Shown piece after piece: positions 1 through 32,267 of a stretch of 32,267 bases of DNA. Position 1 is the first letter of the stretch, and the number at the start of each line of letters is the position of its first letter. The stretch lies in the IMG/VR virus record IMGVR_UViG_3300045988_064271, one strand, 5' to 3'. The notes under the pieces are model-generated. The model made no database searches, had not been told where the DNA came from, and worked only from the letters and a program-made list of their open reading frames with translations. The position numbers were made by a program, and so were the translations under genes. The stretch comes from a virus.

Positions 1-99
1 CGTCTGTGCCGTTCTTTTGCAGCTGTACCGCCACGTCTCCTGCGGTGCCGCTCTCGACGGCAATGCCGTTAAACGCGATCTGATATAGTCCCGGTTTTC
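1..99. repeat. Terminal direct repeat, copy 1. It is identical to 32169..32267, so this is a circular genome written with a 99-nt overlap.
   Basis: The string cgtctgtgccgttcttttgcagctgtaccgcc...gatatagtcccggttttc occurs at 1..99 and again at 32169..32267 with no mismatch seen. An ORF stays in frame across the join. Confidence 0.95.
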
Positions 100-247
100 G
101 GATCGTCACGGATCCAGTGCCGTTTGCAAATTCCACGGCGCATCCGGTTTTCTGCGAATTGTTAAATTTTAAAACGTCATTTACTGCAGCCGCCTGGGCA
201 GACAAATTCCACGCCTGCAGCGTGCTCTTTTTGTAAATATTATTCAT
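1..247 (-). CDS. 5' part of a junction-spanning gene. The product is a 144-aa stand-alone BclA-C-terminal / C1q-TNF-like jelly-roll protein (tentative). It continues at 32168..31981.
   Basis: ATG at 247 sits behind a GAAAGGAAAGAG ribosome-binding site. Translation MNNIYKKSTLQAWNLSAQAAAVNDVLKFNNSQKTGCAVEFANGTGSVTIRKPGLYQIAFNGIAVESGTAGDVAVQLQKNGTD joins in frame to the 73-aa ORF at 31981..32202. The beta-rich pattern (PGLYQIAFNG ... LQKNG ... LTVKN) resembles BclA-CTD-type domains. Confidence 0.6.
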   Translation of the reverse strand, partial: MNNIYKKSTLQAWNLSAQAAAVNDVLKFNNSQKTGCAVEFANGTGSVTIRKPGLYQIAFNGIAVESGTAGDVAVQLQKNGTD

Positions 248-264
248 TTTCTCTTTCCTTTCTA

Positions 265-294
265 CGAAAAAAGAGCGGCATGACACCGCTCTTT
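265..294 (-). terminator. Rho-independent terminator after the 220-aa Gly/Cys-rich gene
   Basis: On the minus strand: AAGAGCGG-TGTCATG-CCGCTCTT followed by a T run. Confidence 0.7.
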
Positions 295-311
295 CGGGGT
301 GTAGCCATACA

Positions 312-974
312 CTAATAGCCGCCACAGCATCCGCTGTTTGCAGCGTATGGGCTGCAGGTGATGTATGCCGGTTTGGCAACAGGCTGCAGCTGATTGATCA
401 GGTATGCGTTCTGTGCGCACTGGCTGTTTGCCAGTTTTTCATCCTGCAGACGATCGCGCAGTTCCTGCATCACATTGGCATTGATCAGTGCTCTGGTGGC
501 TTCGCCTTCTGCGTGGATCGCGTTGGCGATCTCGCAGGTCTGCTGCGAATTTTCGTACCGAACAGCATCGATGTTGCGATTTGTTTCACAGCAACAGTTC
601 TGCTGTGCAAAACGATTCTCTGCTATTGCTCTTTCGGTGCCGAAAAAGCCCTGCTGCATCTGCGCGGTCTGGCCGGAAAATCCGTTCAGCATTTCGGAAT
701 TCATCGCATAGAATCCGTCGCACAATCCGTTCTGGATCCCCAGTACGGACCGGTTCAGATTATTGAAGTTGAATTCACTACACAGATCCGCCCTAGTCAG
801 TGCGCCCTGTGCGGCCGCGCCCTGATTTCCGAATCCGAAGCCGCCGCCACCGCCGCCCCAGGCGAGCAGGAAGAACAGCATCATTACCCACATCCAGGCA
901 CCGCCGTTGTCGCTATCCCCGCCGCCTACACTATAGACTGGCTGTGCTGCCGGGCTCATTGTTTCCATTCCCAT
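312..974 (-). CDS. Glycine- and cysteine-rich membrane-anchored protein of unknown function. The N-terminus has a YjcZ-like composition.
   Basis: 220-aa ORF with ribosome-binding site AAGGGGGA. One hydrophobic segment (AWMWVMMLFFLLAW) is flanked by G runs (GGGGGGFGFG). Ten Cys, including CCC and a C-terminal CCGGY. Confidence 0.7.
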   Translation of the reverse strand: MGMETMSPAAQPVYSVGGGDSDNGGAWMWVMMLFFLLAWGGGGGGFGFGNQGAAAQGALTRADLCSEFNFNNLNRSVLGIQNGLCDGFYAMNSEMLNGFSGQTAQMQQGFFGTERAIAENRFAQQNCCCETNRNIDAVRYENSQQTCEIANAIHAEGEATRALINANVMQELRDRLQDEKLANSQCAQNAYLINQLQPVAKPAYITCSPYAANSGCCGGY

Positions 975-999
975 GATCGTATCCCCCTTTCTTTAATAT

Positions 1000-1233
1000 T
1001 TATTTCACGCCGAACTGGCTGAAATTCTGTTTTAATTGTTCGAAATCAATTCCACGTTCCTGACACAGATTCCGCACGATCTGTTCGACCTGCTGCGGAC
1101 TTTTGCCCTGCGCCATCTGCATGGCGCGGCTGAACGTAGGATCACCGCTAAACATTTGCTGCATCATTTGCAGCGGGTTTTGCGCGGTTTTTAGCTGGCC
1201 GAACGCCTGCATCATTTGCATTGGATTTAACAA
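1000..1233 (-). CDS. Small Gln/Met-rich protein, unknown function
   Basis: 77-aa ORF with a TTG start at 1233, 7 nt after a strong AAAGGAGAG ribosome-binding site. It overlaps the upstream ORF by 86 nt in another frame. Confidence 0.55.
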   Translation of the reverse strand: MLNPMQMMQAFGQLKTAQNPLQMMQQMFSGDPTFSRAMQMAQGKSPQQVEQIVRNLCQERGIDFEQLKQNFSQFGVK

Positions 1234-1567
1234 TGTCGATCTCTCCTTTCAGCGCCACGATGGCAGACTCAATTCTCTGGAACCGTTCCTCGGTCGCGTC
1301 GGCGGCCGGAGGCTTAGGTCTTTGCAGTTCGTATGTATTCAGTATCGCCTTGCCGTCCATGCCTATTTGTTTTGTGTAAATTTTCCCGTTGGATAAATCT
1401 GCGAATACGGTGACGGATCCGTCCAGGTCGATCATTGTCCCCTGGGCTTCGTCTATAGATGTGACCGCCATGCACTTTAGCATGTTCTGCGGATTTCGGA
1501 ACTGTTCATACTGCTGCAGCCGCTGCGCTGGTGGCTGGTATGGTGGATAATATGGATTCTGAAACAT
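1148..1567 (-). CDS. Protein with a Pro/Tyr/Gln-rich N-terminus, unknown function
   Basis: 139-aa ORF with ATG behind GGAAAGGGGTG. N-terminus MFQNPYYPPYQPPAQRLQQYEQFRNPQ, then a globular-looking core. The C-terminal ~28 aa are low complexity and overlap the next gene. Confidence 0.6.
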   Translation of the reverse strand: MFQNPYYPPYQPPAQRLQQYEQFRNPQNMLKCMAVTSIDEAQGTMIDLDGSVTVFADLSNGKIYTKQIGMDGKAILNTYELQRPKPPAADATEERFQRIESAIVALKGEIDIVKSNANDAGVRPAKNRAKPAANDAANV

Positions 1568-1597
1568 TTATTTACACCCCTTTCCTATGTTTAGTGT

Positions 1598-1640
1598 AAA
1601 TAAAAAAGCGACCCTCGTTGTTCACGAAAAGGTCGCTTAA
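1598..1640 (-). terminator. Rho-independent terminator after the 76-aa HTH gene
   Basis: On the minus strand: AAGCGACC - 17-nt loop - GGTCGCTT followed by TTTTTATTT. Confidence 0.7.
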
Positions 1641-1643
1641 AGT

Positions 1644-1874
1644 TTACAAAAAGTTATTTAGTTTTTTGAGAATCTTTCGGTGTTTTGCCTTGACGGTCGA
1701 TTCTGACCATCCCAGCACATCTCCGATGTATGCAAGATTCTTTCCTTCCAGATAGTGAAGTCTCAAGATTGTTCTTTCGTCTTCTGTCAGGATGCATTGT
1801 TTTAAAATTTGCTCGAATTCTTCCACCTCACATATCTGCTGCAGCTTCCTGCGCGCTTCAATGTGATTTGTCAT
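1644..1874 (-). CDS. Small sigma-70 region-4 / LuxR-type HTH regulator
   Basis: 76 aa. The segment LTEDERTILRLHYLEGKNLAYIGDVLGWSESTVKAKHRKILKKL matches the region-4 HTH pattern. Ribosome-binding site TAGGAGAA. Confidence 0.7.
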   Translation of the reverse strand: MTNHIEARRKLQQICEVEEFEQILKQCILTEDERTILRLHYLEGKNLAYIGDVLGWSESTVKAKHRKILKKLNNFL

Positions 1875-1883
1875 AGTTTTCTC

Positions 1884-2207
1884 CTATTTTTTGAAAATGT
1901 ACTGTTCCAGCTCTTCCTTGCCCTTTTTTACTTCTCCAGTGTTGTTTCCAGTTTCGGCGTGAGTCAGCAGCAGGTGCAGGCTCTTCAGCATCATTTTCTG
2001 GTCTTCTTTGATTTCCCTCAAGATTTGATCGTGCTCATCCAGGCGCCGCTCGTCGTTCTCCAGGTACTTGGTGTGTTTTTGCATTTCTTTTTTCAGTTCG
2101 TTCGTTGGCTTCATTGCTGCTCCGATTGCTTTGGCGATATATGCGGCGGCGCCGCCTACTGCGGCGATCACGCCGCAGATTGTTAAAATCATTTCTGTGA
2201 TTCCCAT
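1884..2207 (-). CDS. N-terminally membrane-anchored coiled-coil protein in the lysis cassette (possible holin accessory or lysis regulator)
   Basis: 107 aa with an N-terminal TM segment (MILTICGVIAAVGGAAAYIA) and then a charged helical region. Ribosome-binding site AGGAGGG. Lies immediately downstream of the endolysin. Confidence 0.5.
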   Translation of the reverse strand: MGITEMILTICGVIAAVGGAAAYIAKAIGAAMKPTNELKKEMQKHTKYLENDERRLDEHDQILREIKEDQKMMLKSLHLLLTHAETGNNTGEVKKGKEELEQYIFKK

Positions 2208-2219
2208 GGCGCCCTCCTG

Positions 2220-2921
2220 CTATCCGATGTACTTTCTGCCATTTTGCACGGCGCACACGTATCCGGACGGGATCTGCAGCCATATGCTGGATCCGGATGC
2301 GACTACCCTCTGGCAGGTCACGCGCGTTCCAGATTTCAAAACGGCATATGTCTGATTTAACGCATGCGCTTTGCCGCCAGCCGTCAGCTCGCTTCGTTTT
2401 TTCTGGCGATATCCGGTTCCTGGGCCCGTGCGGACTTTCATGTTTGCTTTTAGCGTGTAGGTGCTGCCTACACGGTATCCGGACGAACTAGTAGATCCGG
2501 CCGGTTTATAATTTGCCAACCAGGTCTCCGGATTTTGCCATTTCCAGGTGGACAGACTGCGGACGCCAATGTGCAGGTGCACGCCAGTGCTGGATCCAGT
2601 GGTTCCGGCTACGCCGACTTTGGTGCCTTTGCTGACGCTCTGTCCCTGCCTAACAGATATGCTGTTCAGATGGAAATATGCAACAGCCACGCCCAGGCGT
2701 GGATATTTTACGTATACATAATTTCCGGCCGAACTGTCCCGGCCGCGTTTATAAACGACTCCCGATTCGATAGCGTGAACGGCTACCTTCCCACACCCGT
2801 AGTCTACGCCGTAATGGAATCTTTTCTTTTTTGTTCTCGGATGGATCCGGTAGCCATACCCGGATGTCTTCCGGTAGGATGCGCCCCCGAAGATGATCGC
2901 TAATGTGCTTGCTGTGCTCAC
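2220..2921 (-). CDS. Endolysin: M23 peptidase domain plus C-terminal SH3-like wall-binding domain
   Basis: M23 motifs HYGVDYG and TGVHLHIG. The C-terminal RVGSTYTLKANMKVRTGPG...IWLQIPSGYV is SH3_3-like. 4-nt overlap with the holin gene. Confidence 0.9.
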   Translation of the reverse strand: MSTASTLAIIFGGASYRKTSGYGYRIHPRTKKKRFHYGVDYGCGKVAVHAIESGVVYKRGRDSSAGNYVYVKYPRLGVAVAYFHLNSISVRQGQSVSKGTKVGVAGTTGSSTGVHLHIGVRSLSTWKWQNPETWLANYKPAGSTSSSGYRVGSTYTLKANMKVRTGPGTGYRQKKRSELTAGGKAHALNQTYAVLKSGTRVTCQRVVASGSSIWLQIPSGYVCAVQNGRKYIG

Positions 2922-3244
2922 TTCTCATCCACCTCGCTTTCGTGCTCTTCGGCTGCGGATCCGTCGCCGTTTGTGGCGGCCAGATCTTTGCCTTCGATCA
3001 TTTGCTTGAATGCCTGGTGCAGACCGACTGCGATGCAGCCACCCAGCGCGCCGCCAATGATCGCCGTGATCGCCGGTCCTTCCAGGCACGCCTCTGCGAA
3101 CGCGCCTATGATCGGCAGCACCGTCGGAATGATCCGGTTATCGGTCGGCAGCCATTTCTTGATGATGTATCCCAGAATCAAACAGCCTACGATCACGTAG
3201 CTGTTGACCGGGATCTGTGTGATGATTTCGTTTAAATTGATCAT
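2918..3244 (-). CDS. Holin (three predicted TM segments, charged C-terminus)
   Basis: 108 aa with three hydrophobic segments and the motif GGALGGCIAVGLHQAFKQ. Acidic tail. Sits directly upstream of the endolysin. Ribosome-binding site AAAGGAG. Confidence 0.85.
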   Translation of the reverse strand: MINLNEIITQIPVNSYVIVGCLILGYIIKKWLPTDNRIIPTVLPIIGAFAEACLEGPAITAIIGGALGGCIAVGLHQAFKQMIEGKDLAATNGDGSAAEEHESEVDEK

Positions 3245-5027: not shown

Positions 5028-6020
5028 TCAATCATCTCCTTTCAGCCGGTACTCGATCCCGGCTCTTCCGTTCTGTAGTGTGTAGATCTTGTTTATTATC
5101 GGCTTTTTGATGCTCATTCCGGTGATGTAGTCCCTGCCGCCGATGATGTCCCCGATCTGCATGTTGATGTCCGTCTTCGTGATGTCCATCGTGAACTGTT
5201 TTTGATTTGCCAGTTCCAGCAGCTTCTCTGTTCCTTTTTCGGTCAATTCCTCAGATTCGGCAGACGAAAAATCGTACACATCGACTACTTCCTGCAGCCC
5301 GGTGTAGTACTTCGTCGTCCCGACAGTTCCATCTTTTTGAATGTAAAGATGTAGCACTACGCGATCCTTCAGTTCGCCTTTTCCTAAACAGATCAGGTGG
5401 TTCACTCCGTTTTTTGTTTCTTCAAATGTGAACTGCAGGCGATTGTTCTGCGACAGTTCCACTTGATCGGAGTAGTCCGTCACGGGTACGGCTTGCATCT
5501 GCACGTATCCCGGTGCCAGCTCCTGGCGGATGTAATCGATCTGCAAGCGGTAATTTTTTGATGCCAGCAGTTTGTCGATGCCTTCCAGCAGAGTGATGTA
5601 CCGGTCGAATTGAAAACCTGTGACGGTCGTCTCCGTGGATCCTTCCGGAACTGCGATCAGTTTCCCCAGCCCTGCGGCTGTGATCAGCGTGCGCAGGATG
5701 TAGTTCAGTTCGCCAGAAACGATCTTGTAGTCTTCTCCGGCTGGTGGCTCGATGATCTTCTTGCTTAAAATTCCGCGCCAGCTTCTGCCTTTTAGGATGA
5801 TCGTCCCGTCCGACGTGTTCGTCTTTTTTCTGCCGATGATCCCGCCAAATTCTTCGTCTGTTACGAATATCCGATTTTCATTCGCAAACAGCTGCGGATC
5901 CCATGCGCCTGCCGGGATGGTCAGCTCGAAATCTTGCGTCTCGTTCAGATCGACATCCAGTTTTTTCAGATTCCGCGCCGGTCCCAGTTCGTTGCCGAAC
6001 GAATCAGTTACGATCACCAT
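5028..6020 (-). CDS. Tail tip / Tal-like protein (Sipho_Gp37-type N-terminal domain, no lysin domain)
   Basis: 330 aa, directly after Dit. Assigned by position and overall pattern (prophage tail endopeptidase N-domain-like). Confidence 0.65.
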   Translation of the reverse strand: MVIVTDSFGNELGPARNLKKLDVDLNETQDFELTIPAGAWDPQLFANENRIFVTDEEFGGIIGRKKTNTSDGTIILKGRSWRGILSKKIIEPPAGEDYKIVSGELNYILRTLITAAGLGKLIAVPEGSTETTVTGFQFDRYITLLEGIDKLLASKNYRLQIDYIRQELAPGYVQMQAVPVTDYSDQVELSQNNRLQFTFEETKNGVNHLICLGKGELKDRVVLHLYIQKDGTVGTTKYYTGLQEVVDVYDFSSAESEELTEKGTEKLLELANQKQFTMDITKTDINMQIGDIIGGRDYITGMSIKKPIINKIYTLQNGRAGIEYRLKGDD

Positions 6021-6835
6021 GCCGGTTCACTCCTTTCCTGGTACAGCGTCAGGTCGAATCCGAAATTTCCGTTCCATCCGATATCTATGGTTCCGCCGGG
6101 TATTTTTTGGAACACGGAATTTTCTTTTGCCTGTTTATCCCAGATGTTTCCGACAGTGCCGTTGCTTCTGTTTTTTGTGATGGTCAGATCCCGTGAGTTG
6201 ATCGTGGCGTATTCGCCAGTTTCTACCGTGTCCAGGATCTGGTACGGATGTCCTGCGATGTTGATCCGCGGATTTACGCAGGGACCGTATATGGTCAGTT
6301 TGAATTCAGACGGTGCAAAATGCCCGGTGCTCCACCTGGCGGCTCCCTTAGATCTTCCGGCGTAATTGTATGGGTAATCATGGGGGTAGTTCAGCCCGCC
6401 TTCCTCCGTCTCGGATCCGCCCGCGAAGAACTGCCGGAACGCCTCTTTGATCCAGAAGGCTCTCGGCGCTACGATTTTCATCTCGCGCTGCGCTCCGAAA
6501 AACTCTTCGCTCGGTGTGGTGGTCGCCGAAATGATGTTGCACTGGATGTAGTAGTCGCCCCAGTACAGCTTGCCTCTGGCCTTATTCACGATGTCGTATT
6601 CGGTGATTTCCAGGATTCGATTCAGCTGCTGCGCACGGTCTGCAGATCTTGCTGCTACGATCATGTTCAGTTCTAGCGGGTCCTTTGTGTATTCTTCGAT
6701 GTCTATACCGTAGTCCTGGGATGTGCCTTCGTATTTCCATTCGTATGTGTGAAAATTTCCCTCGAAGATCTGGGTCTCGAACGACCGGAAATCGATCGTT
6801 TCGTTTTGGGAATTCACATATTTTAGTTGTTTCAT
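6014..6835 (-). CDS. Distal tail protein (Dit)
   Basis: 273 aa immediately after the tape measure gene, with an ATGA overlap. Siphovirus tail component pattern. Confidence 0.75.
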   Translation of the reverse strand: MKQLKYVNSQNETIDFRSFETQIFEGNFHTYEWKYEGTSQDYGIDIEEYTKDPLELNMIVAARSADRAQQLNRILEITEYDIVNKARGKLYWGDYYIQCNIISATTTPSEEFFGAQREMKIVAPRAFWIKEAFRQFFAGGSETEEGGLNYPHDYPYNYAGRSKGAARWSTGHFAPSEFKLTIYGPCVNPRINIAGHPYQILDTVETGEYATINSRDLTITKNRSNGTVGNIWDKQAKENSVFQKIPGGTIDIGWNGNFGFDLTLYQERSEPAW

Positions 6836-27855: not shown

Positions 27856-28770
27856 ATGACTGTTCAGCAATTCAAAGAAGTAGAGGATTATCGCAAATTC
27901 ACAGCACCTGCAGAACTGCACAAGGCTGTGAATACCCTTCGCGGCCTTGTCGCCGGTATTACTACTGACCGTACCGTTTCGGATGATGAAATCAACGAAC
28001 TGTCTAACTGGTGCCTGGTTAATAGCAGATTTTCGTCGCGCCATCCATTCAGCGAGCTGATTCCTAAAATAAGAGAGATCTATGAGGACGGCATTATCAC
28101 TGAAGAGGAATCTGCGGATATTTTATGGTTGTGCAACAATTTCGTTTCGGATTCCGACTACTACGATCTGATCACATCTTCGATCCAATTTTTGTTCGGT
28201 CTGATGCACGGCGTCATGGCAGACGGCGAGATCAGCGACAAAGAGATCCTGTCATTGTCTGACTGGGTTCGCACAAATCAATATCTTTCCGGCTGCTATC
28301 CGTTTGACGAGCTGGAGAGTCTTATTCTTTCCATTCTTGCAGATGGAAAGATCGACGAGGATGAGCGAAATATTTTAAAATCTTTTTTCAGCAACTTCAT
28401 CGACACGACTTTGTCTTACAATCTAAACGAATCCGAATTGAAAGCACTCCGCGACCAGTACAGTGTCGAAGGCATCTGTTCTATTTGCCAGTCTATCGAC
28501 TTTCCCGGTTCCGTCTTTTCTTTCACCGGGCAGTCTTCAGTTGCCACCAGGCAAGAGATCGCAGAACAAGTCGAATCTCTTGGCGGGATTTTCAAAAATA
28601 ACGTTACCAAAAAAACAAACTATCTGATCGTCGGGAACGAAGGGAATCCGTGTTGGGCGTATTCCTGCTACGGCCGCAAGGTGGATGCTGCGATCAAGCT
28701 GCGCAAATCCGGTATCCCGATTGTGATTGTGAACGAAACGGATTTTTGGGATATCCTCGAAGATCTGTAG
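27856..28770 (+). CDS. Protein with two TerB/DjlA-N-like repeats and a C-terminal BRCT domain
   Basis: Internal duplication: TDRTVSDDEINELSNWC...PFSELIPKIREIYEDGIITEEESADILW against ADGEISDKEILSLSDWV...PFDELESLILSILADGKIDEDERNILKSFF. The C-terminal FSFTGQSSVATRQEIAEQVESLGGIFKNNVTKKTNYLIVGNEG...IVNETDFWDIL is a LigA-type BRCT pattern. Confidence 0.75.
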   Translation: MTVQQFKEVEDYRKFTAPAELHKAVNTLRGLVAGITTDRTVSDDEINELSNWCLVNSRFSSRHPFSELIPKIREIYEDGIITEEESADILWLCNNFVSDSDYYDLITSSIQFLFGLMHGVMADGEISDKEILSLSDWVRTNQYLSGCYPFDELESLILSILADGKIDEDERNILKSFFSNFIDTTLSYNLNESELKALRDQYSVEGICSICQSIDFPGSVFSFTGQSSVATRQEIAEQVESLGGIFKNNVTKKTNYLIVGNEGNPCWAYSCYGRKVDAAIKLRKSGIPIVIVNETDFWDILEDL

Positions 28771-28809: not shown

Positions 28810-30366
28810 ATGAGAATTGCAATCTATGCTCGAAAAAGTGCTTTTTCCGATAAAAGTGAAAGCGTGCACAACCAGGATCGGATGTGCCGTGAGTACTGTG
28901 CTCTTCATTTTCCAGGGGAGCACATTTTTTTGAATTATACTGACGAGGATAAGACAGGAGCGAACACGAACCGGCCAGCACTGCAGAAAATGATGCGAGA
29001 CGTGCATACCGGGATCATCGACTTGTTGATCGTGTACCAGCTGGACCGGCTGACTCGTGATGTGCGAGACTACTGCAATCTATCCGCTGAGCTGAATGAT
29101 TGTGGCGTTCACTTTACATCCGTAAAAGAATCTGTTGATACGTCCACCCCGATCGGCGAAGCGCTGACGACTCTTTCCGCCGTTTTTGCACAGATGGAAC
29201 GAAAAACACTCTCTAATCGTGTTTACGATAACATGATGGGGCTTGCTCGTTCCGGATGGTGGACTGGCGGGAACCTTCCGTGCGGCTACACTACCCGGAG
29301 AGTCGTAGAGAACGGCAAGCCTCACACTCTTCTCGTTCCTGATCCGGAAAAGGCAGAGCAACTGGTCACCGTTTTTAAACTGTTTGTGGAGCGCGGCTCT
29401 TCTTTTCATTCGTTCGCATCATTCGCACTGACGAATGATTGCTTTGATATATTCGGCATTCCGTCAACTTCGCAGGTTCGCCGCGTGATCACGTCCCCTT
29501 ACGGTGCTCCAGCTAACAAGGATCTGCGCAACTACTATCTTTCGATCGGGGCGAACGTGATCGGTGCAGAGTCCGACTGGGATGGTGCCCATGGTGTGAT
29601 GCGGTACGGGGTGACTGACCAGCGCAATGGAACCACCACGAATCCCCGCGAGTCCTGGATAGTGTGTCCCGGCAGGCATGAACCTATCCTGCCCGCAGAT
29701 CTCTGGCTCGCTGCGCAGGATCAGGTCAAGTCAAACATGTTTTGTAAACAGGCAAAGTATCCCCCAGTGCTCCTGAAGGGAATCCTTTGTTGCAAATGTG
29801 GCCGCATGATGTCCCCAGTCCGATCGCGGTACAAAGACAAGATGTACATCTCATACCGCTGCACTCGTACCGGCGAGGTCGGTCGAAAGTCTCCAGACTG
29901 CGTCTCTGCCTGCCGCGACTATGTCTTGGACGAAAAAGTCTTATCCGTTTTCCGCGAGATCGAAAGAGATCCAGAGGTTATAAAAAAGTATTCCCCTGCG
30001 GCACCAGCTACCGATCAGGATGCGCTCCACAAAAAAGAAAAAGAAATCGAATCACTGCAGAAAAAGATCGGCAATCTGTCCTCCGCCCTGGCTATCAATC
30101 CGGAGTCGACAGCGGCGAAGTACATCATTGCAGACATGGAGTCCCTGGATTCGCAGATCCAGAAGAAGCAGATGGAGCTGGCCGGTCTACGAGCGAACAG
30201 GTTGACGGCAGCGCAGGCAGAAAAAGAACTGGCTGCCAAACAAAAGGAGATCGCCCGGCTGGTGCGGAATCTGGATGACCTGCCGCCAGAAGAACAGAAC
30301 AAGATCGCACGCAGTGTGCTGCGCAAATGTGTGTGGGACGGGGATACTCTTTTTTTAGAGTTTTGA
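28810..30366 (+). CDS. int: Large serine recombinase (integrase)
   Basis: MRIAIYARKSAFSD catalytic Ser motif and LIVYQLDRLTRD. Also a recombinase domain, a zinc ribbon (CCKCGRMM...YRCTR) and a C-terminal coiled coil. 518 aa. Confidence 0.92.
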   Translation: MRIAIYARKSAFSDKSESVHNQDRMCREYCALHFPGEHIFLNYTDEDKTGANTNRPALQKMMRDVHTGIIDLLIVYQLDRLTRDVRDYCNLSAELNDCGVHFTSVKESVDTSTPIGEALTTLSAVFAQMERKTLSNRVYDNMMGLARSGWWTGGNLPCGYTTRRVVENGKPHTLLVPDPEKAEQLVTVFKLFVERGSSFHSFASFALTNDCFDIFGIPSTSQVRRVITSPYGAPANKDLRNYYLSIGANVIGAESDWDGAHGVMRYGVTDQRNGTTTNPRESWIVCPGRHEPILPADLWLAAQDQVKSNMFCKQAKYPPVLLKGILCCKCGRMMSPVRSRYKDKMYISYRCTRTGEVGRKSPDCVSACRDYVLDEKVLSVFREIERDPEVIKKYSPAAPATDQDALHKKEKEIESLQKKIGNLSSALAINPESTAAKYIIADMESLDSQIQKKQMELAGLRANRLTAAQAEKELAAKQKEIARLVRNLDDLPPEEQNKIARSVLRKCVWDGDTLFLEF

Positions 30367-30436: not shown

Positions 30437-30465
30437 TTGACACGCCACTCATTGAGTGTTATAAT
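30437..30465 (+). promoter_or_regulatory. Consensus sigma-A/sigma-70 promoter
   Basis: TTGACA - 17 nt - TATAAT exactly, preceded by A-tracts (UP-like). Confidence 0.8.
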
Positions 30466-30798: not shown

Positions 30799-30819
30799 CA
30801 TTTAATGGAGGTACAACAA

Positions 30820-31455
30820 ATGAGAAGAGTATTTTTAGAATCAAACGGATACAACATGATCGGATTTATTTTTAGCGATGGTATGGTCGCATTTGACTGC
30901 ACCACGATCGACGAAGCCATCCACATGGACTACAGCGGCGTTCGCGGCTGCAAATCTGCAGAAGAAGCGGCTGTTAACTGCAACACAGAAGTGATCCCAT
31001 TCATCGAAGACGAATGGGAATCCGTCGTAGAAATCGGCGAGATCAAAATTGCCCGCCAGAACGCAGGCATCAGTCAGCAGCAGATGTCGAATCTGTTCGA
31101 CATCCCAAAAAGAACGATTGAAAATTGGGAATCCGGATCCAGATCCTGTCCGGAATGGGCGGAGGATATGATCGTCGAAAAACTGAATCGTTTCCAGCAC
31201 AGACGTCCGATCATGCACGCAATCGCACGCCAGATTGACTGGCTGTGGGATGTGATCTGCAATCCGAAAAACGAAGGAAAAGATATGACTGCGCACGAAG
31301 ATGACATCATCGTGCTTGCGAACGAATATTTCTCACTGCGTGGTCATTCCGGAAGAGTCTCTTTTGTCGCAGGAATGGATGACGAAGCGAACACGGTTTC
31401 TGCAATCCGCGACATGGTCCATCAGGATCGGGGGGAAGACAATGAATCGTGTTAA
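30820..31455 (+). CDS. 211-aa protein with a central XRE-type HTH flanked by unknown N- and C-terminal domains
   Basis: Start at the ATG at 30820, behind GGAGG. The HTH is ARQNAGISQQQMSNLFDIPKRTIENWESGSRSCPEWAEDMIV. Confidence 0.7.
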   Translation: MRRVFLESNGYNMIGFIFSDGMVAFDCTTIDEAIHMDYSGVRGCKSAEEAAVNCNTEVIPFIEDEWESVVEIGEIKIARQNAGISQQQMSNLFDIPKRTIENWESGSRSCPEWAEDMIVEKLNRFQHRRPIMHAIARQIDWLWDVICNPKNEGKDMTAHEDDIIVLANEYFSLRGHSGRVSFVAGMDDEANTVSAIRDMVHQDRGEDNESC

Positions 31456-31537
31456 GGATCTTTCCGGTCAGAGATTTGGTCGGCTGGTAGTTCTGCAACG
31501 CAAAGAAATAAGAGGGCATCAGAGCCCTCTTTTTTAA
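31442..31537 (+). pseudogene. Truncated remnant of a gene with the (L)SGQRFGRL(V)V N-terminal motif
   Basis: MNRVKDLSGQRFGRLVVLQRKEIRGHQSPLF. After about 20 codons the frame runs into the terminator hairpin and stops. Confidence 0.4.
31510..31535. terminator. Bidirectional rho-independent terminator between convergent transcription units
   Basis: AAGAGGGC-atcaga-GCCCTCTT followed by TTTT on the plus strand and ATTTCTTT on the minus strand. Confidence 0.75.
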
Positions 31538-31971
31538 TACATGAAATATTTTGCTATCTTATCCGGTTTTGCATCTTCGTCGTTTATGAAATCATATGCC
31601 AGATTGAAGTAGAAGTCTGCATCGTCCTGTCCGATGATCTTGGCGGTTCTGCTGTAGTCGTTTACCATCATATTCATCACCAGGTAGTAGTCAGTTACAT
31701 GATCGTTGATCCCTTTTTCCTGCAGGTATTCGGCGATGTCTTCCCGGCTCCAGCGCTGCCCATACGGGATCATGCCCTGGACGATCCGGGCAGCTTCTTC
31801 CGGTTCGATCTGGTAGGCTACCTGCTCGGCTTTTTTGACGTAGTCCTGGTACTTTTCCGGGAAATTATCTTTTAAAAAATCCCCCATTTCATAGTATACC
31901 AGATCCATCGCCTGTTTTTTCTCGACGCTTTTTCCTGCATAGACGGCGTCGGATATTTCTCGCAAATCCAT
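31534..31971 (-). CDS. Hypothetical acidic protein, last gene of the post-lysis cargo island
   Basis: The ORF 31534..31980 starts with GTG, but the ATG at 31971 sits behind AGGTGA and is preferred. YYLVMNMMVNDYSRTAKIIG...FINDEDAKPDKIAKYFMY. No family recognised. Confidence 0.6.
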   Translation of the reverse strand: MDLREISDAVYAGKSVEKKQAMDLVYYEMGDFLKDNFPEKYQDYVKKAEQVAYQIEPEEAARIVQGMIPYGQRWSREDIAEYLQEKGINDHVTDYYLVMNMMVNDYSRTAKIIGQDDADFYFNLAYDFINDEDAKPDKIAKYFMY

Positions 31972-31980
31972 GACGGTCAC

Positions 31981-32168
31981 CTAGCACAGTTTCACGACAG
32001 ACAGATTTGCGTTTGCAAAATTTGCAGCGACGCCGATATTTTTCACTGTCAGGACTGCGGTGTTATTTACGCATGCGCAGGACTGCGGCACTTCGATAAT
32101 CGTTTCGAATGCCGGATTTACTACCGCGGTAGCATTGGCACTCGTCGCCTGGGCGATAGCCCCGGGCA
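31981..32168 (-). CDS. 3' part of the junction-spanning BclA-CTD/C1q-like gene (5' part at 1..247)
   Basis: The frame is continuous through the 99-nt repeat. The C-terminus is ...NPAFETIIEVPQSCACVNNTAVLTVKNIGVAANFANANLSVVKLC. Confidence 0.6.
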
Positions 32169-32267
32169 CGTCTGTGCCGTTCTTTTGCAGCTGTACCGCC
32201 ACGTCTCCTGCGGTGCCGCTCTCGACGGCAATGCCGTTAAACGCGATCTGATATAGTCCCGGTTTTC
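32169..32267. repeat. Terminal direct repeat, copy 2 (identical to 1..99)
   Basis: Same 99-nt string as the window start. Confidence 0.95.

Follow-up and report, generated by a model that had tools for sequence, protein, structure and literature searches.

A conserved six-gene cassette in a circular temperate phage genome and its possible role as a late accessory unit

We analysed a stretch of viral DNA of 32,267 nucleotides, IMG/VR virus record IMGVR_UViG_3300045988_064271 (the window, taken at its full length), and in it six minus-strand genes, here called P1 to P6, which lie between a minus-strand late block and a plus-strand block with integrase and helix-turn-helix (HTH) genes. A preliminary description, made from the sequence alone, had presented these genes as a cargo island of spore-coat-like composition. 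Window bases 1..99 are identical to bases 32169..32267, an exact 99-bp terminal repeat that leaves a circular unit of 32,168 bp; the window is the genome of a circular temperate phage with a 99-bp assembly overlap. The repeat falls within the P5 gene. As had been proposed, the gene block crosses the circular junction, with P5 running from 247 over the repeat to 31981. All six open reading frames (ORFs) downstream of the holin and M23-peptidase endolysin genes exist as described; the position after the lysis genes needs one correction, in that a 107-aa ORF (1884-2207) sits between the endolysin and P1. The block is bounded and punctuated by terminators, which agrees with its earlier portrayal as a distinct accessory unit. 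The features are listed in Table 1.

Table 1. Features of the cassette and of its surroundings in the window.
Feature	Coordinates	Strand	Remarks
P1, 76 aa, stand-alone sigma-70 region-4 / GerE-type HTH	1644..1874	-	first cassette gene
Intrinsic terminator P1/P2	1598..1640	-	stem 1638-1631 with 1613-1606, U-run 1607-1602; RNAfold free energy (dG) -17.8
Possible weak -10 element, TACACT	1593..1598	-	putative; past the terminator, ahead of the P2 ribosome-binding site (RBS) at 1577-1585
P2, 139 aa	1148..1567	-	phrog_21718, 5e-5
P3, 77 aa	1000..1233	-	TTG start, good RBS; Q 21%, M 12%
P4, 220 aa	312..974	-	phrog_16490, 1e-28
Intrinsic terminator P4/P5	265..294	-	RNAfold dG -18.6, then U-run
P5, N-terminal part	1..247	-	ATG at 247; RBS AAAGGAAAGAG at 251-261
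P5, C-terminal part	31981..32267	-	stop 31981-31983; bases 32169-32267 duplicate 1-99
P6, 145-148 aa, DUF7841	31534..31980 (GTG) or 31971 (ATG, AGGTG RBS)	-	Pfam DUF7841, 3.2e-11
Bidirectional terminator	31510..31531	both	terminator scan on both strands; RNAfold dG about -14.6 on each strand
107-aa ORF, N-terminal transmembrane (TM) helix and coiled coil	1884-2207	-	phrog_1009, weak DUF7365
M23-peptidase endolysin	2220-2921	-	5e-20
Hol44-type holin	2918-3244	-	Pfam, 9e-11
Large serine integrase	28810-30366	+	
216-aa HTH protein	30805-31455	+	convergent with the cassette

The IMG/VR database was scanned with P4, which returned 80 loci with P4 identities from 97% down to 33%. Companion genes were sought in the neighbouring ORFs by tblastn and iterative hidden Markov model (HMM) searches, and the counts given here refer to 87 loci, all chosen through P4. 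P2 was present in 82 of these, P1 in 63 (directly upstream of P2), P3 in 60 (immediately upstream of P4), P6 in 56, and P5 in 38; where P6 was found, it followed either P5 or a different protein, P5'. The order and the strand were always the same. P1-P2-P3-P4-(P5 or P5')-P6 is a conserved collinear cassette in divergent phages and not loose cargo, and the co-occurrence that the preliminary description had proposed to check in other phages is borne out. P1 to P6 are real genes, because each has hundreds to thousands of homologues and their order is kept in unrelated phages. Beyond the match of P1 to phrog_36, the PHROG matches of the cassette proteins are labelled 'unknown function'. Profile searches matched P1 to P6 to no family with a virion, lysis, or replication annotation, in line with what had been claimed for them. 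The literature searched for DUF7841, the PHROG identifiers, the locus in coliphages, and the labels used in crAss-like phages contained no study of the cassette genes, and no characterised homologue was found for any of the six proteins.

Proteins and regulatory signals

P1 matched the Pfam families Sigma70_r4 (5.4e-12, 45.5 bits), Sigma70_r4_2 (3.4e-9), and GerE (5.9e-6), and in PHROG it matched phrog_36, a transcriptional regulator (5e-13). The GerE score of 26.3 bits exceeds the cut-off of 23.5 bits and covers residues 28-73 as a single LuxR-type HTH; the earlier assignment of P1 as a sigma-region-4 HTH protein holds. Full sigma models were matched in their last ~60 positions only (TIGR02937, 103-164 of 165). 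Sigma-70 family membership takes both region 2 and region 4, and the 76 residues of P1 contain no region 2; P1 is therefore not a sigma factor. It resembles the GerE, LuxR, and sigma-70 region-4 regulators in consisting of the region-4 HTH only and in standing at the head of genes that it may control. A link to the control of coat genes, as known for GerE, could be drawn by analogy only.

P1 starts 9 nt past the stop codon of the 107-aa ORF, and its RBS spans that stop. With so short a distance to the preceding late/lysis ORF, P1 would therefore be part of the late/lysis transcript and probably be expressed late in lytic growth. The terminators that had been placed after P1, after P4, and, as a bidirectional element, near 31510 all fold as hairpins with U-runs in RNAfold. 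Of 62 unique P1-P2 spacers taken from divergent loci, 30 contain an equivalent hairpin with a U-run. Some divergent loci (for example L001, L088, L090, L124, and L131) have a terminator in the corresponding P4/P5 position, and most of the loci that carry P6 have one past P6; in the window, this last terminator ends both the cassette and the convergent plus-strand HTH gene. A P1 operator within the terminator palindrome was considered and not retained, as the stems vary freely among lineages; it remains speculation.

The candidate -10 element behind the P1/P2 terminator of the window matches TATAAT in four of six positions. A perfect TATAAT is present at the corresponding place upstream of P2 in 25 of the 62 unique spacers, mostly 14-34 nt before the P2 start, against 7.1 expected from shuffled sequences (a 3.5-fold excess). 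We infer that P2 onward forms a separate late-firing unit, with P1 as its likely, putative regulator. Loci of the L048 type contain an additional small ORF (MSYEQRLERMGYDPECARRIV...) in a P1-P2 spacer of ~244 nt, with a TATAAT ~192 nt upstream of P2.

P2 had been described as a Pro/Tyr/Gln-rich protein, which is correct for its first ~30 residues and incorrect for the rest. This N-terminus is followed by a small beta domain (residues ~30-80) and a long C-terminal helix in the AlphaFold2 (AF2) model, which has a mean predicted local distance difference test score (pLDDT) of 75. A Foldseek search with the model against the PDB gave no match below an E-value of 0.02, and the matches in BFVD were uncharacterised viral proteins from gut viromes only. 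A profile search of P2 against the PDB sequences brought up coiled-coil noise only. None of the 4,730 P2 homologues has a name. The Gln/Met-rich composition reported for P3 was confirmed; its Met/Gln-rich N-terminus contains NPMQMMQ repeats and its C-terminus is helical. P3 begins inside P2: 86 nt (1148-1233) are read in two different frames, as the closing 28 codons of P2 and the opening 28 of P3. Overlaps of this type, of ~30-85 nt, were seen again in several other lineages. In the overlap region, the P3 frame encodes the conserved NPMQMMQ, while the P2 tail is unconserved and of low complexity.

The core of the cassette is P4, with over 7,500 homologues, all unnamed. Its earlier characterization as a Gly/Cys-rich membrane protein stands as to composition (G 12%, 10 Cys), while the membrane segment is borderline: P4 has a single short hydrophobic segment with a Kyte-Doolittle maximum (KD19) of 1.51, which is marginal for a TM helix. 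From the N-terminus, an acidic flank is followed by the short hydrophobic helix, a Gly/Trp/Phe-rich stretch, NGF-type repeats, a CCC motif, long helices, the motif PAYITCSPY, and a Cys/Gly tail. The CCC motif is present in 93 of 93 P4 sequences, which average 10 Cys per protein, ~3 of them within the last 15 residues. In 91 family members, the 15 residues preceding the hydrophobic stretch carry a net charge of -1.6, and the following ones are neutral to positive; therefore, if this stretch spans a membrane, most of P4 would be cytoplasmic.

The AF2 model of P4 is of low confidence (pLDDT 49), with helices at 26-38, 72-123, and 140-196, and was rejected as too poor for a fold search. A profile search of the P4 family against the PDB sequences found no relative, only coiled-coil noise. 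The hydrophobic Gly-rich N-terminus, followed by long helices that are parted by a Cys-containing stretch, is reminiscent of coiled-coil attachment and fusion fibres, and the 'spike' and 'fiber' labels given to P4 homologues in Crassvirales suggest that other annotators saw the same resemblance. However, P4 has no significant match to solved structures, its model is poor and its heptads are weak, and those labels are computational and putative.

In one contig binned as Bacteroidales (L111, 4983-6121), ~1.1 kb of DNA encoding a GIY-YIG-type homing endonuclease interrupts P4 precisely at the CCC motif. The insert looks like a group I intron or a homing insertion, and P4 is seemingly split in three further loci (L108, L112, and L135). 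Homing-type insertions usually hit conserved, important phage genes; the position of this insert at the CCC motif thus points to an importance of P4 to the phage.

P5, reconstructed over the circular junction, has 144 aa. It was matched by the Pfam families BclA_C (2.1e-5; 24.8 bits, under the 38-bit cut-off) and C1q (2.8e-3), and the profile of its family matched two PDB entries, 9H38 (F-BclA-CTD, 4.3e-5) and 3TWI (BclA, 1.3e-3), with ~70-95 residues aligned. The former is the C-terminal domain (CTD) of F-BclA, the tip fibrillum of the F-ENA (endospore appendage) of Bacillus thuringiensis (PMC12357932). By these matches, P5 is predicted to be a stand-alone BclA-CTD/C1q-like domain, the type that had been proposed for it. 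Its size and its beta-rich character would suit a trimeric knob. BclA-CTD/C1q-type domains are trimeric in solved structures.

Unlike BclA, P5 consists of the domain alone. The P5 family comprises 490 representative clusters at 50% identity, nearly all of 130-160 aa, and neither P5 nor these relatives possess collagen-like GXX repeats; among the best 150 representatives, nearly all have 130-168 aa and align end to end. The domain match starts at residue ~13-25, which leaves no N-terminal extension for an exosporium-targeting sequence in P5, the motif itself not having been searched by model, and the same build is found throughout the relative clusters. P5 further differs from BclA in its Pfam score, which is under the curated cut-off, and in that the hosts of P5-bearing phages include some that do not sporulate.

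In loci that lack P5, its slot is usually filled by P5', a Cys-rich beta-type protein of 119-140 aa. A single family of P5 and P5' was ruled out (hhalign probability 0.4%). The P5' profile gave only coiled-coil noise against the PDB sequences, and a profile search with a 119-aa protein from Clostridium perfringens phage PMQ04 gave no match there. Slot 5 is occupied by two unrelated small beta-rich proteins, depending on the lineage; the exchange of unrelated proteins in one slot is common for recognition modules.

P6 is acidic, as described (pI 4.4), but probably starts at ATG 31971, which makes it 145 aa long rather than the 148 aa first given. A P6 homologue scores 2.7e-31 against DUF7841. 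The KD19 maxima of P2, P3, P5, and P6 do not exceed 1.1, and these four proteins have no strongly hydrophobic N-terminal segment.

Host range and genomic settings

GTDB was scanned with one genome per species and an alignment of six sequences as query, which gave 51 loci. The complete set of six genes was found in a 545-kb contig of Phascolarctobacterium, in a 205-kb contig of Megasphaera, and in further Megasphaera contigs; a Veillonella bin contained five of the six. Further occurrences are in Oscillospiraceae, Lachnospiraceae, Ruminococcus, Anaerofustis, and others. Many other GTDB records are small contigs of metagenome-assembled genomes, whose binning was not trusted. To our knowledge, Phascolarctobacterium and Megasphaera, both Negativicutes, are diderm and do not sporulate.

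P4 was also found in 179 records of phages with Gram-negative hosts, mostly virulent enterobacterial siphophages (Seuratvirus, Tlsvirus, pSf-1-like, and T5-like). The enterobacterial homologues have HMM E-values from 1e-22 to 1e-40 and share the CCC motif. In phages CAjan and DanielBernoulli (BASEL Bas08), the lateral tail fibre gene has P4 (gp21 and bas08_0030, respectively) as its next gene downstream, and three small genes come after P4. These companions (gp22-25 in CAjan, Segz_25-27) were considered as counterparts of P2, P3, P5, and P6 and proved unrelated. The trio of small genes after P4 is itself conserved among enterobacterial siphophages (CAjan, L141, 7603-9003; DanielBernoulli, L142, 6551-7654; Segz_1, L003, 5410-6524); one of its genes encodes a His-rich protein whose C-terminus weakly resembles MazG/PRA-PH (Pfam, 0.016). 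CAjan has an additional 67-aa Cys-rich ORF that is similar to the P4 tail.

Many Crassvirales carry P4 (4e-35) adjoining holin and lysis genes, and P6 (3e-28) occurs there as well. Their P4 labels, 'spike protein/glycoprotein' or 'outer capsid protein/viral fiber', are computational. In cr53_1 (L144, NC_055889.1; 4628-5263 and 5293-6207), a protein labelled 'RNA polymerase sigma factor/ubiquitin-like protein' belongs to P6/DUF7841 (3e-28) and a 'spike protein/glycoprotein' to the P4 family; judged by sequence, both public labels look over-interpreted. P4 is also present in the cultured Bacteroides uniformis phage C3_41T2LP and in two viruses assigned to Methanomassiliicoccales, which are methanogens. 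One of the latter, vir215 (L145, NC_092586.1), encodes its P4 homologue (5878-6759, phrog_16490) just behind the genes for a tail protein and a reverse transcriptase, an arrangement like that of a diversity-generating retroelement (DGR), and near the integrase. In both cr53_1 and vir215, P4 lies behind DGR-associated tail proteins.

The setting of the cassette varies. In contigs of 44-54 kb, it lies behind tail and amidase genes, with replication genes convergent to it; in a myovirus prophage, it lies behind the tail fibre gene at the end of the prophage; and in Dulem virus 35, it is found between the minor capsid and the scaffold/major capsid genes, after XhlA-like TM proteins. In phage PMQ04, P2-P3-P4 lie between lysis and replication genes, and an integrase is absent among the 68 annotated features. 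P2-P4 and P5' are carried by PMQ04 and also by C. perfringens phage HMD-PC1. Contigs of 94-120 kb with P2-P4-P5 (L014 type) were considered as crAss-like but are not so called here; they had no blastn match in the phage collection.

The distribution bears on the role that the preliminary description had proposed, namely a lysogenic conversion module that acts on the spore coat, the exosporium, or the cell surface of the host under a private GerE- or sigma-like regulator. The best solved relatives of P5 are indeed BclA-type C-terminal domains of exosporium and endospore-appendage fibrils, P1 with its 76 aa scores above the Pfam GerE threshold, the low-complexity and Cys-rich compositions are genuine, the missing secretion signals would be compatible with assembly in the mother cell, and the cassette adjoins the integrase end of the prophage. 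However, the full cassette resides in prophages of Negativicutes that do not sporulate (Phascolarctobacterium and Megasphaera), so that it is not restricted to spore-forming hosts, and parts of it occur in Crassvirales, coliphages, and viruses of methanogenic archaea. Nor is it confined to temperate phages, as would be expected of lysogenic conversion: P2-P3-P4 are found in the integrase-less C. perfringens phage PMQ04 and P4 in virulent Seuratvirus and Tlsvirus. No spore-coat family (coat, crust, appendage, or Ena/DUF3992) was matched by P1 to P6 at E-values up to 1, or by P5' and its neighbours at E-values up to 0.1, and P1 appears coupled to the late/lysis transcript. Because the relatives of P5 have no collagen repeats, no coat family was matched, and the carriers include non-sporulating hosts and integrase-less phages, the spore and conversion readings are unsupported. 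A spore-coat role of the cassette is unlikely, and we give very little credence to the conversion model as a whole.

Morons offer a closer parallel. They are autonomous promoter-gene-terminator units in late operons, such as bor and lom of lambda or gp15 of HK97. The cassette resembles them in its place at the end of a late operon, in being flanked and punctuated by terminators, in the -10-like element behind the first terminator, and in its variable position among genomes. It differs in comprising six genes in fixed order with a regulator of their own, and in occurring in virulent as well as temperate phages across host phyla. The most fitting class for it is the phage moron or late accessory unit, of which it is an unusual form with several genes and its own regulation.

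Function of the cassette

The reading that we favour, tentatively, is that the products are assembled late in the cytoplasm into a P4-based, Cys-linked elongated structure with P5 or P5', most likely an accessory fibre or adhesin that decorates the virion. P1 would be the final gene on the late/lysis transcript, which would end at the P1/P2 terminator; P2 onward would be read from a promoter of its own just past that terminator, possibly with the help of P1, as a 'very late' unit. P2, P3, P5, and P6 are probably cytoplasmic, because they have no strongly hydrophobic N-terminal segment, and would act where virions are built. P4 would form an elongated oligomer, linked by Cys or by metal, that bears an exchangeable small knob (here P5), with P2, P3, and P6 as adaptors or assembly helpers, and the assembly would become an accessory fibre or adhesin of the virion. 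We count in favour of this reading the occurrence of the cassette or its parts regardless of the envelope type of the host (in phages of Firmicutes and Negativicutes, in Crassvirales, in enterobacterial siphophages, and in methanogen viruses) and the position of P4 near adsorption genes in CAjan, DanielBernoulli, the myovirus prophage, cr53_1, and vir215. The conserved gene order, the transcription signals of the cassette, the BclA-CTD/C1q matches of P5, the two unrelated occupants of slot 5, and the computational labels in Crassvirales are counted with them.

Several points weigh against it. The proposed placement of the cassette proteins in virions is drawn from sequence, confidence in the P4 model is low (pLDDT 49), and the heptad periodicity of P4 is weak. 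Nearly all of the 179 records of phages with Gram-negative hosts label the P4 homologue 'hypothetical protein', which would be odd for a virion component of well-studied groups, and the neighbours of P4 in C3_41T2LP are recombination genes. Structural accessory genes seldom come with a regulator of their own and internal terminators. As to the regulation, the window's own -10 element is weak as judged from its sequence, the hairpin stems vary by lineage, and a binding of P1 to them is speculation. Finally, the hydrophobic segment of P4 with its acidic N-flank is no less compatible with anchoring in a membrane than with anchoring in a virion.

This last point leads to the main rival, a membrane-anchored late complex in which P4 would lie N-out/C-in in the cytoplasmic membrane, inserted by its N-terminal hydrophobic segment, with P2, P3, P5, and P6 at the inner face, and which would act in lysis timing, egress, or a block of superinfection, comparable to single-TM exclusion proteins or holin-associated proteins. 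The single hydrophobic stretch with its acidic N-flank and its neutral or positive C-flank in 91 members fits such a complex, as does the glycine-zipper-like segment at this place in the homologues from phages with Gram-negative hosts. The window, L086, PMQ04, cr116_1, cr53_1, and Dulem virus 35 have holin and endolysin genes beside the cassette; all host groups possess a cytoplasmic membrane; and the cassette's own regulator and terminators are moron-like, HK97 gp15 being the case in point. On the other hand, the hydrophobic stretch has only 10-14 residues and is borderline, the phage of the window already has a holin and a second TM/coiled-coil ORF, a C1q/BclA-like knob has no obvious cytoplasmic role, six genes are many for exclusion, and no holin, spanin, or PADLOC family was matched. 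We consider this complex somewhat unlikely. P4 as a spanin or holin in its own right was rejected: it matched no such family, the hosts of the cassette are monoderm, diderm, and archaeal alike, and the window has its own holin.

The products might instead serve assembly only: they would chaperone or scaffold tail fibres or other structures made late, and would themselves be absent from the finished particle. P4 lies directly behind the tail fibre genes in coliphages and so does the cassette in the myovirus prophage; a passing role would account for P4 never being annotated as structural, and the cytoplasmic location suggested by hydropathy would agree with it. However, the companions of P4 are wholly different in Firmicute and enterobacterial phages, the cassette also occurs away from fibre genes (at the head genes of Dulem virus 35, and in C3_41T2LP at recombination genes), and no similarity to known tail-fibre assembly proteins was found. 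An assembly-only role is distinctly improbable. An anti-phage defence system was considered and rejected; PADLOC gave nothing for P2 to P6, and its sole contact was between the HTH of P1 and the corresponding part of a CARF model (5e-5). Beyond the accessory fibre or adhesin and the three rivals (spore-directed conversion, membrane complex, and assembly aid), the remaining probability goes to something else.

A wider form of the favoured reading, which we regard as quite doubtful, is a 'very late' structure shared by phages at large, in which P4, exchangeable knobs, and low-complexity helpers would self-assemble in the cytoplasm under a private regulator and would coat, tether, or decorate particles. 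If true, it would be a virion counterpart of the exosporium nap, common to phages of Firmicutes, Negativicutes, and Bacteroidota, with a core protein that reaches coliphages and archaeal viruses. The scale is considerable, with more than 7,500 P4 and more than 4,700 P2 homologues in public data, all of them unnamed, and an order of six genes that is kept across phages with little else in common. P4 is present in workable phages, among them BASEL Bas08, CAjan, C. perfringens phages, and a Bacteroides uniformis phage; therefore, the function of a large piece of gut-virome 'dark matter' could be assignable by standard genetics and virion proteomics. The case also shows that spore-coat readings of phage genes that are based on composition call for a check of the host distribution.

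Neighbouring genes in the window

The minus-strand late genes follow in the order Dit, a minor tail protein of the Sipho_Gp37 type, a CBM5/12 protein, a 359-aa fibre-like protein, holin, endolysin, and the 107-aa ORF that precedes P1. This ORF is limited to the closest relatives (8 loci) and may encode a second lysis-associated membrane protein.

The plus strand has a perfect match to the sigma-70 promoter (TTGACA and TATAAT 17 nt apart, plus a TG upstream) at 30437-30465, between the integrase gene and the gene for the 216-aa HTH protein; it probably serves the lysogeny side. A BRCT-domain protein of 304 aa (phrog_3989, 4e-87) is encoded at 27856-28770 (+), directly before the serine integrase gene; BRCT domains are uncommon in small temperate phages.

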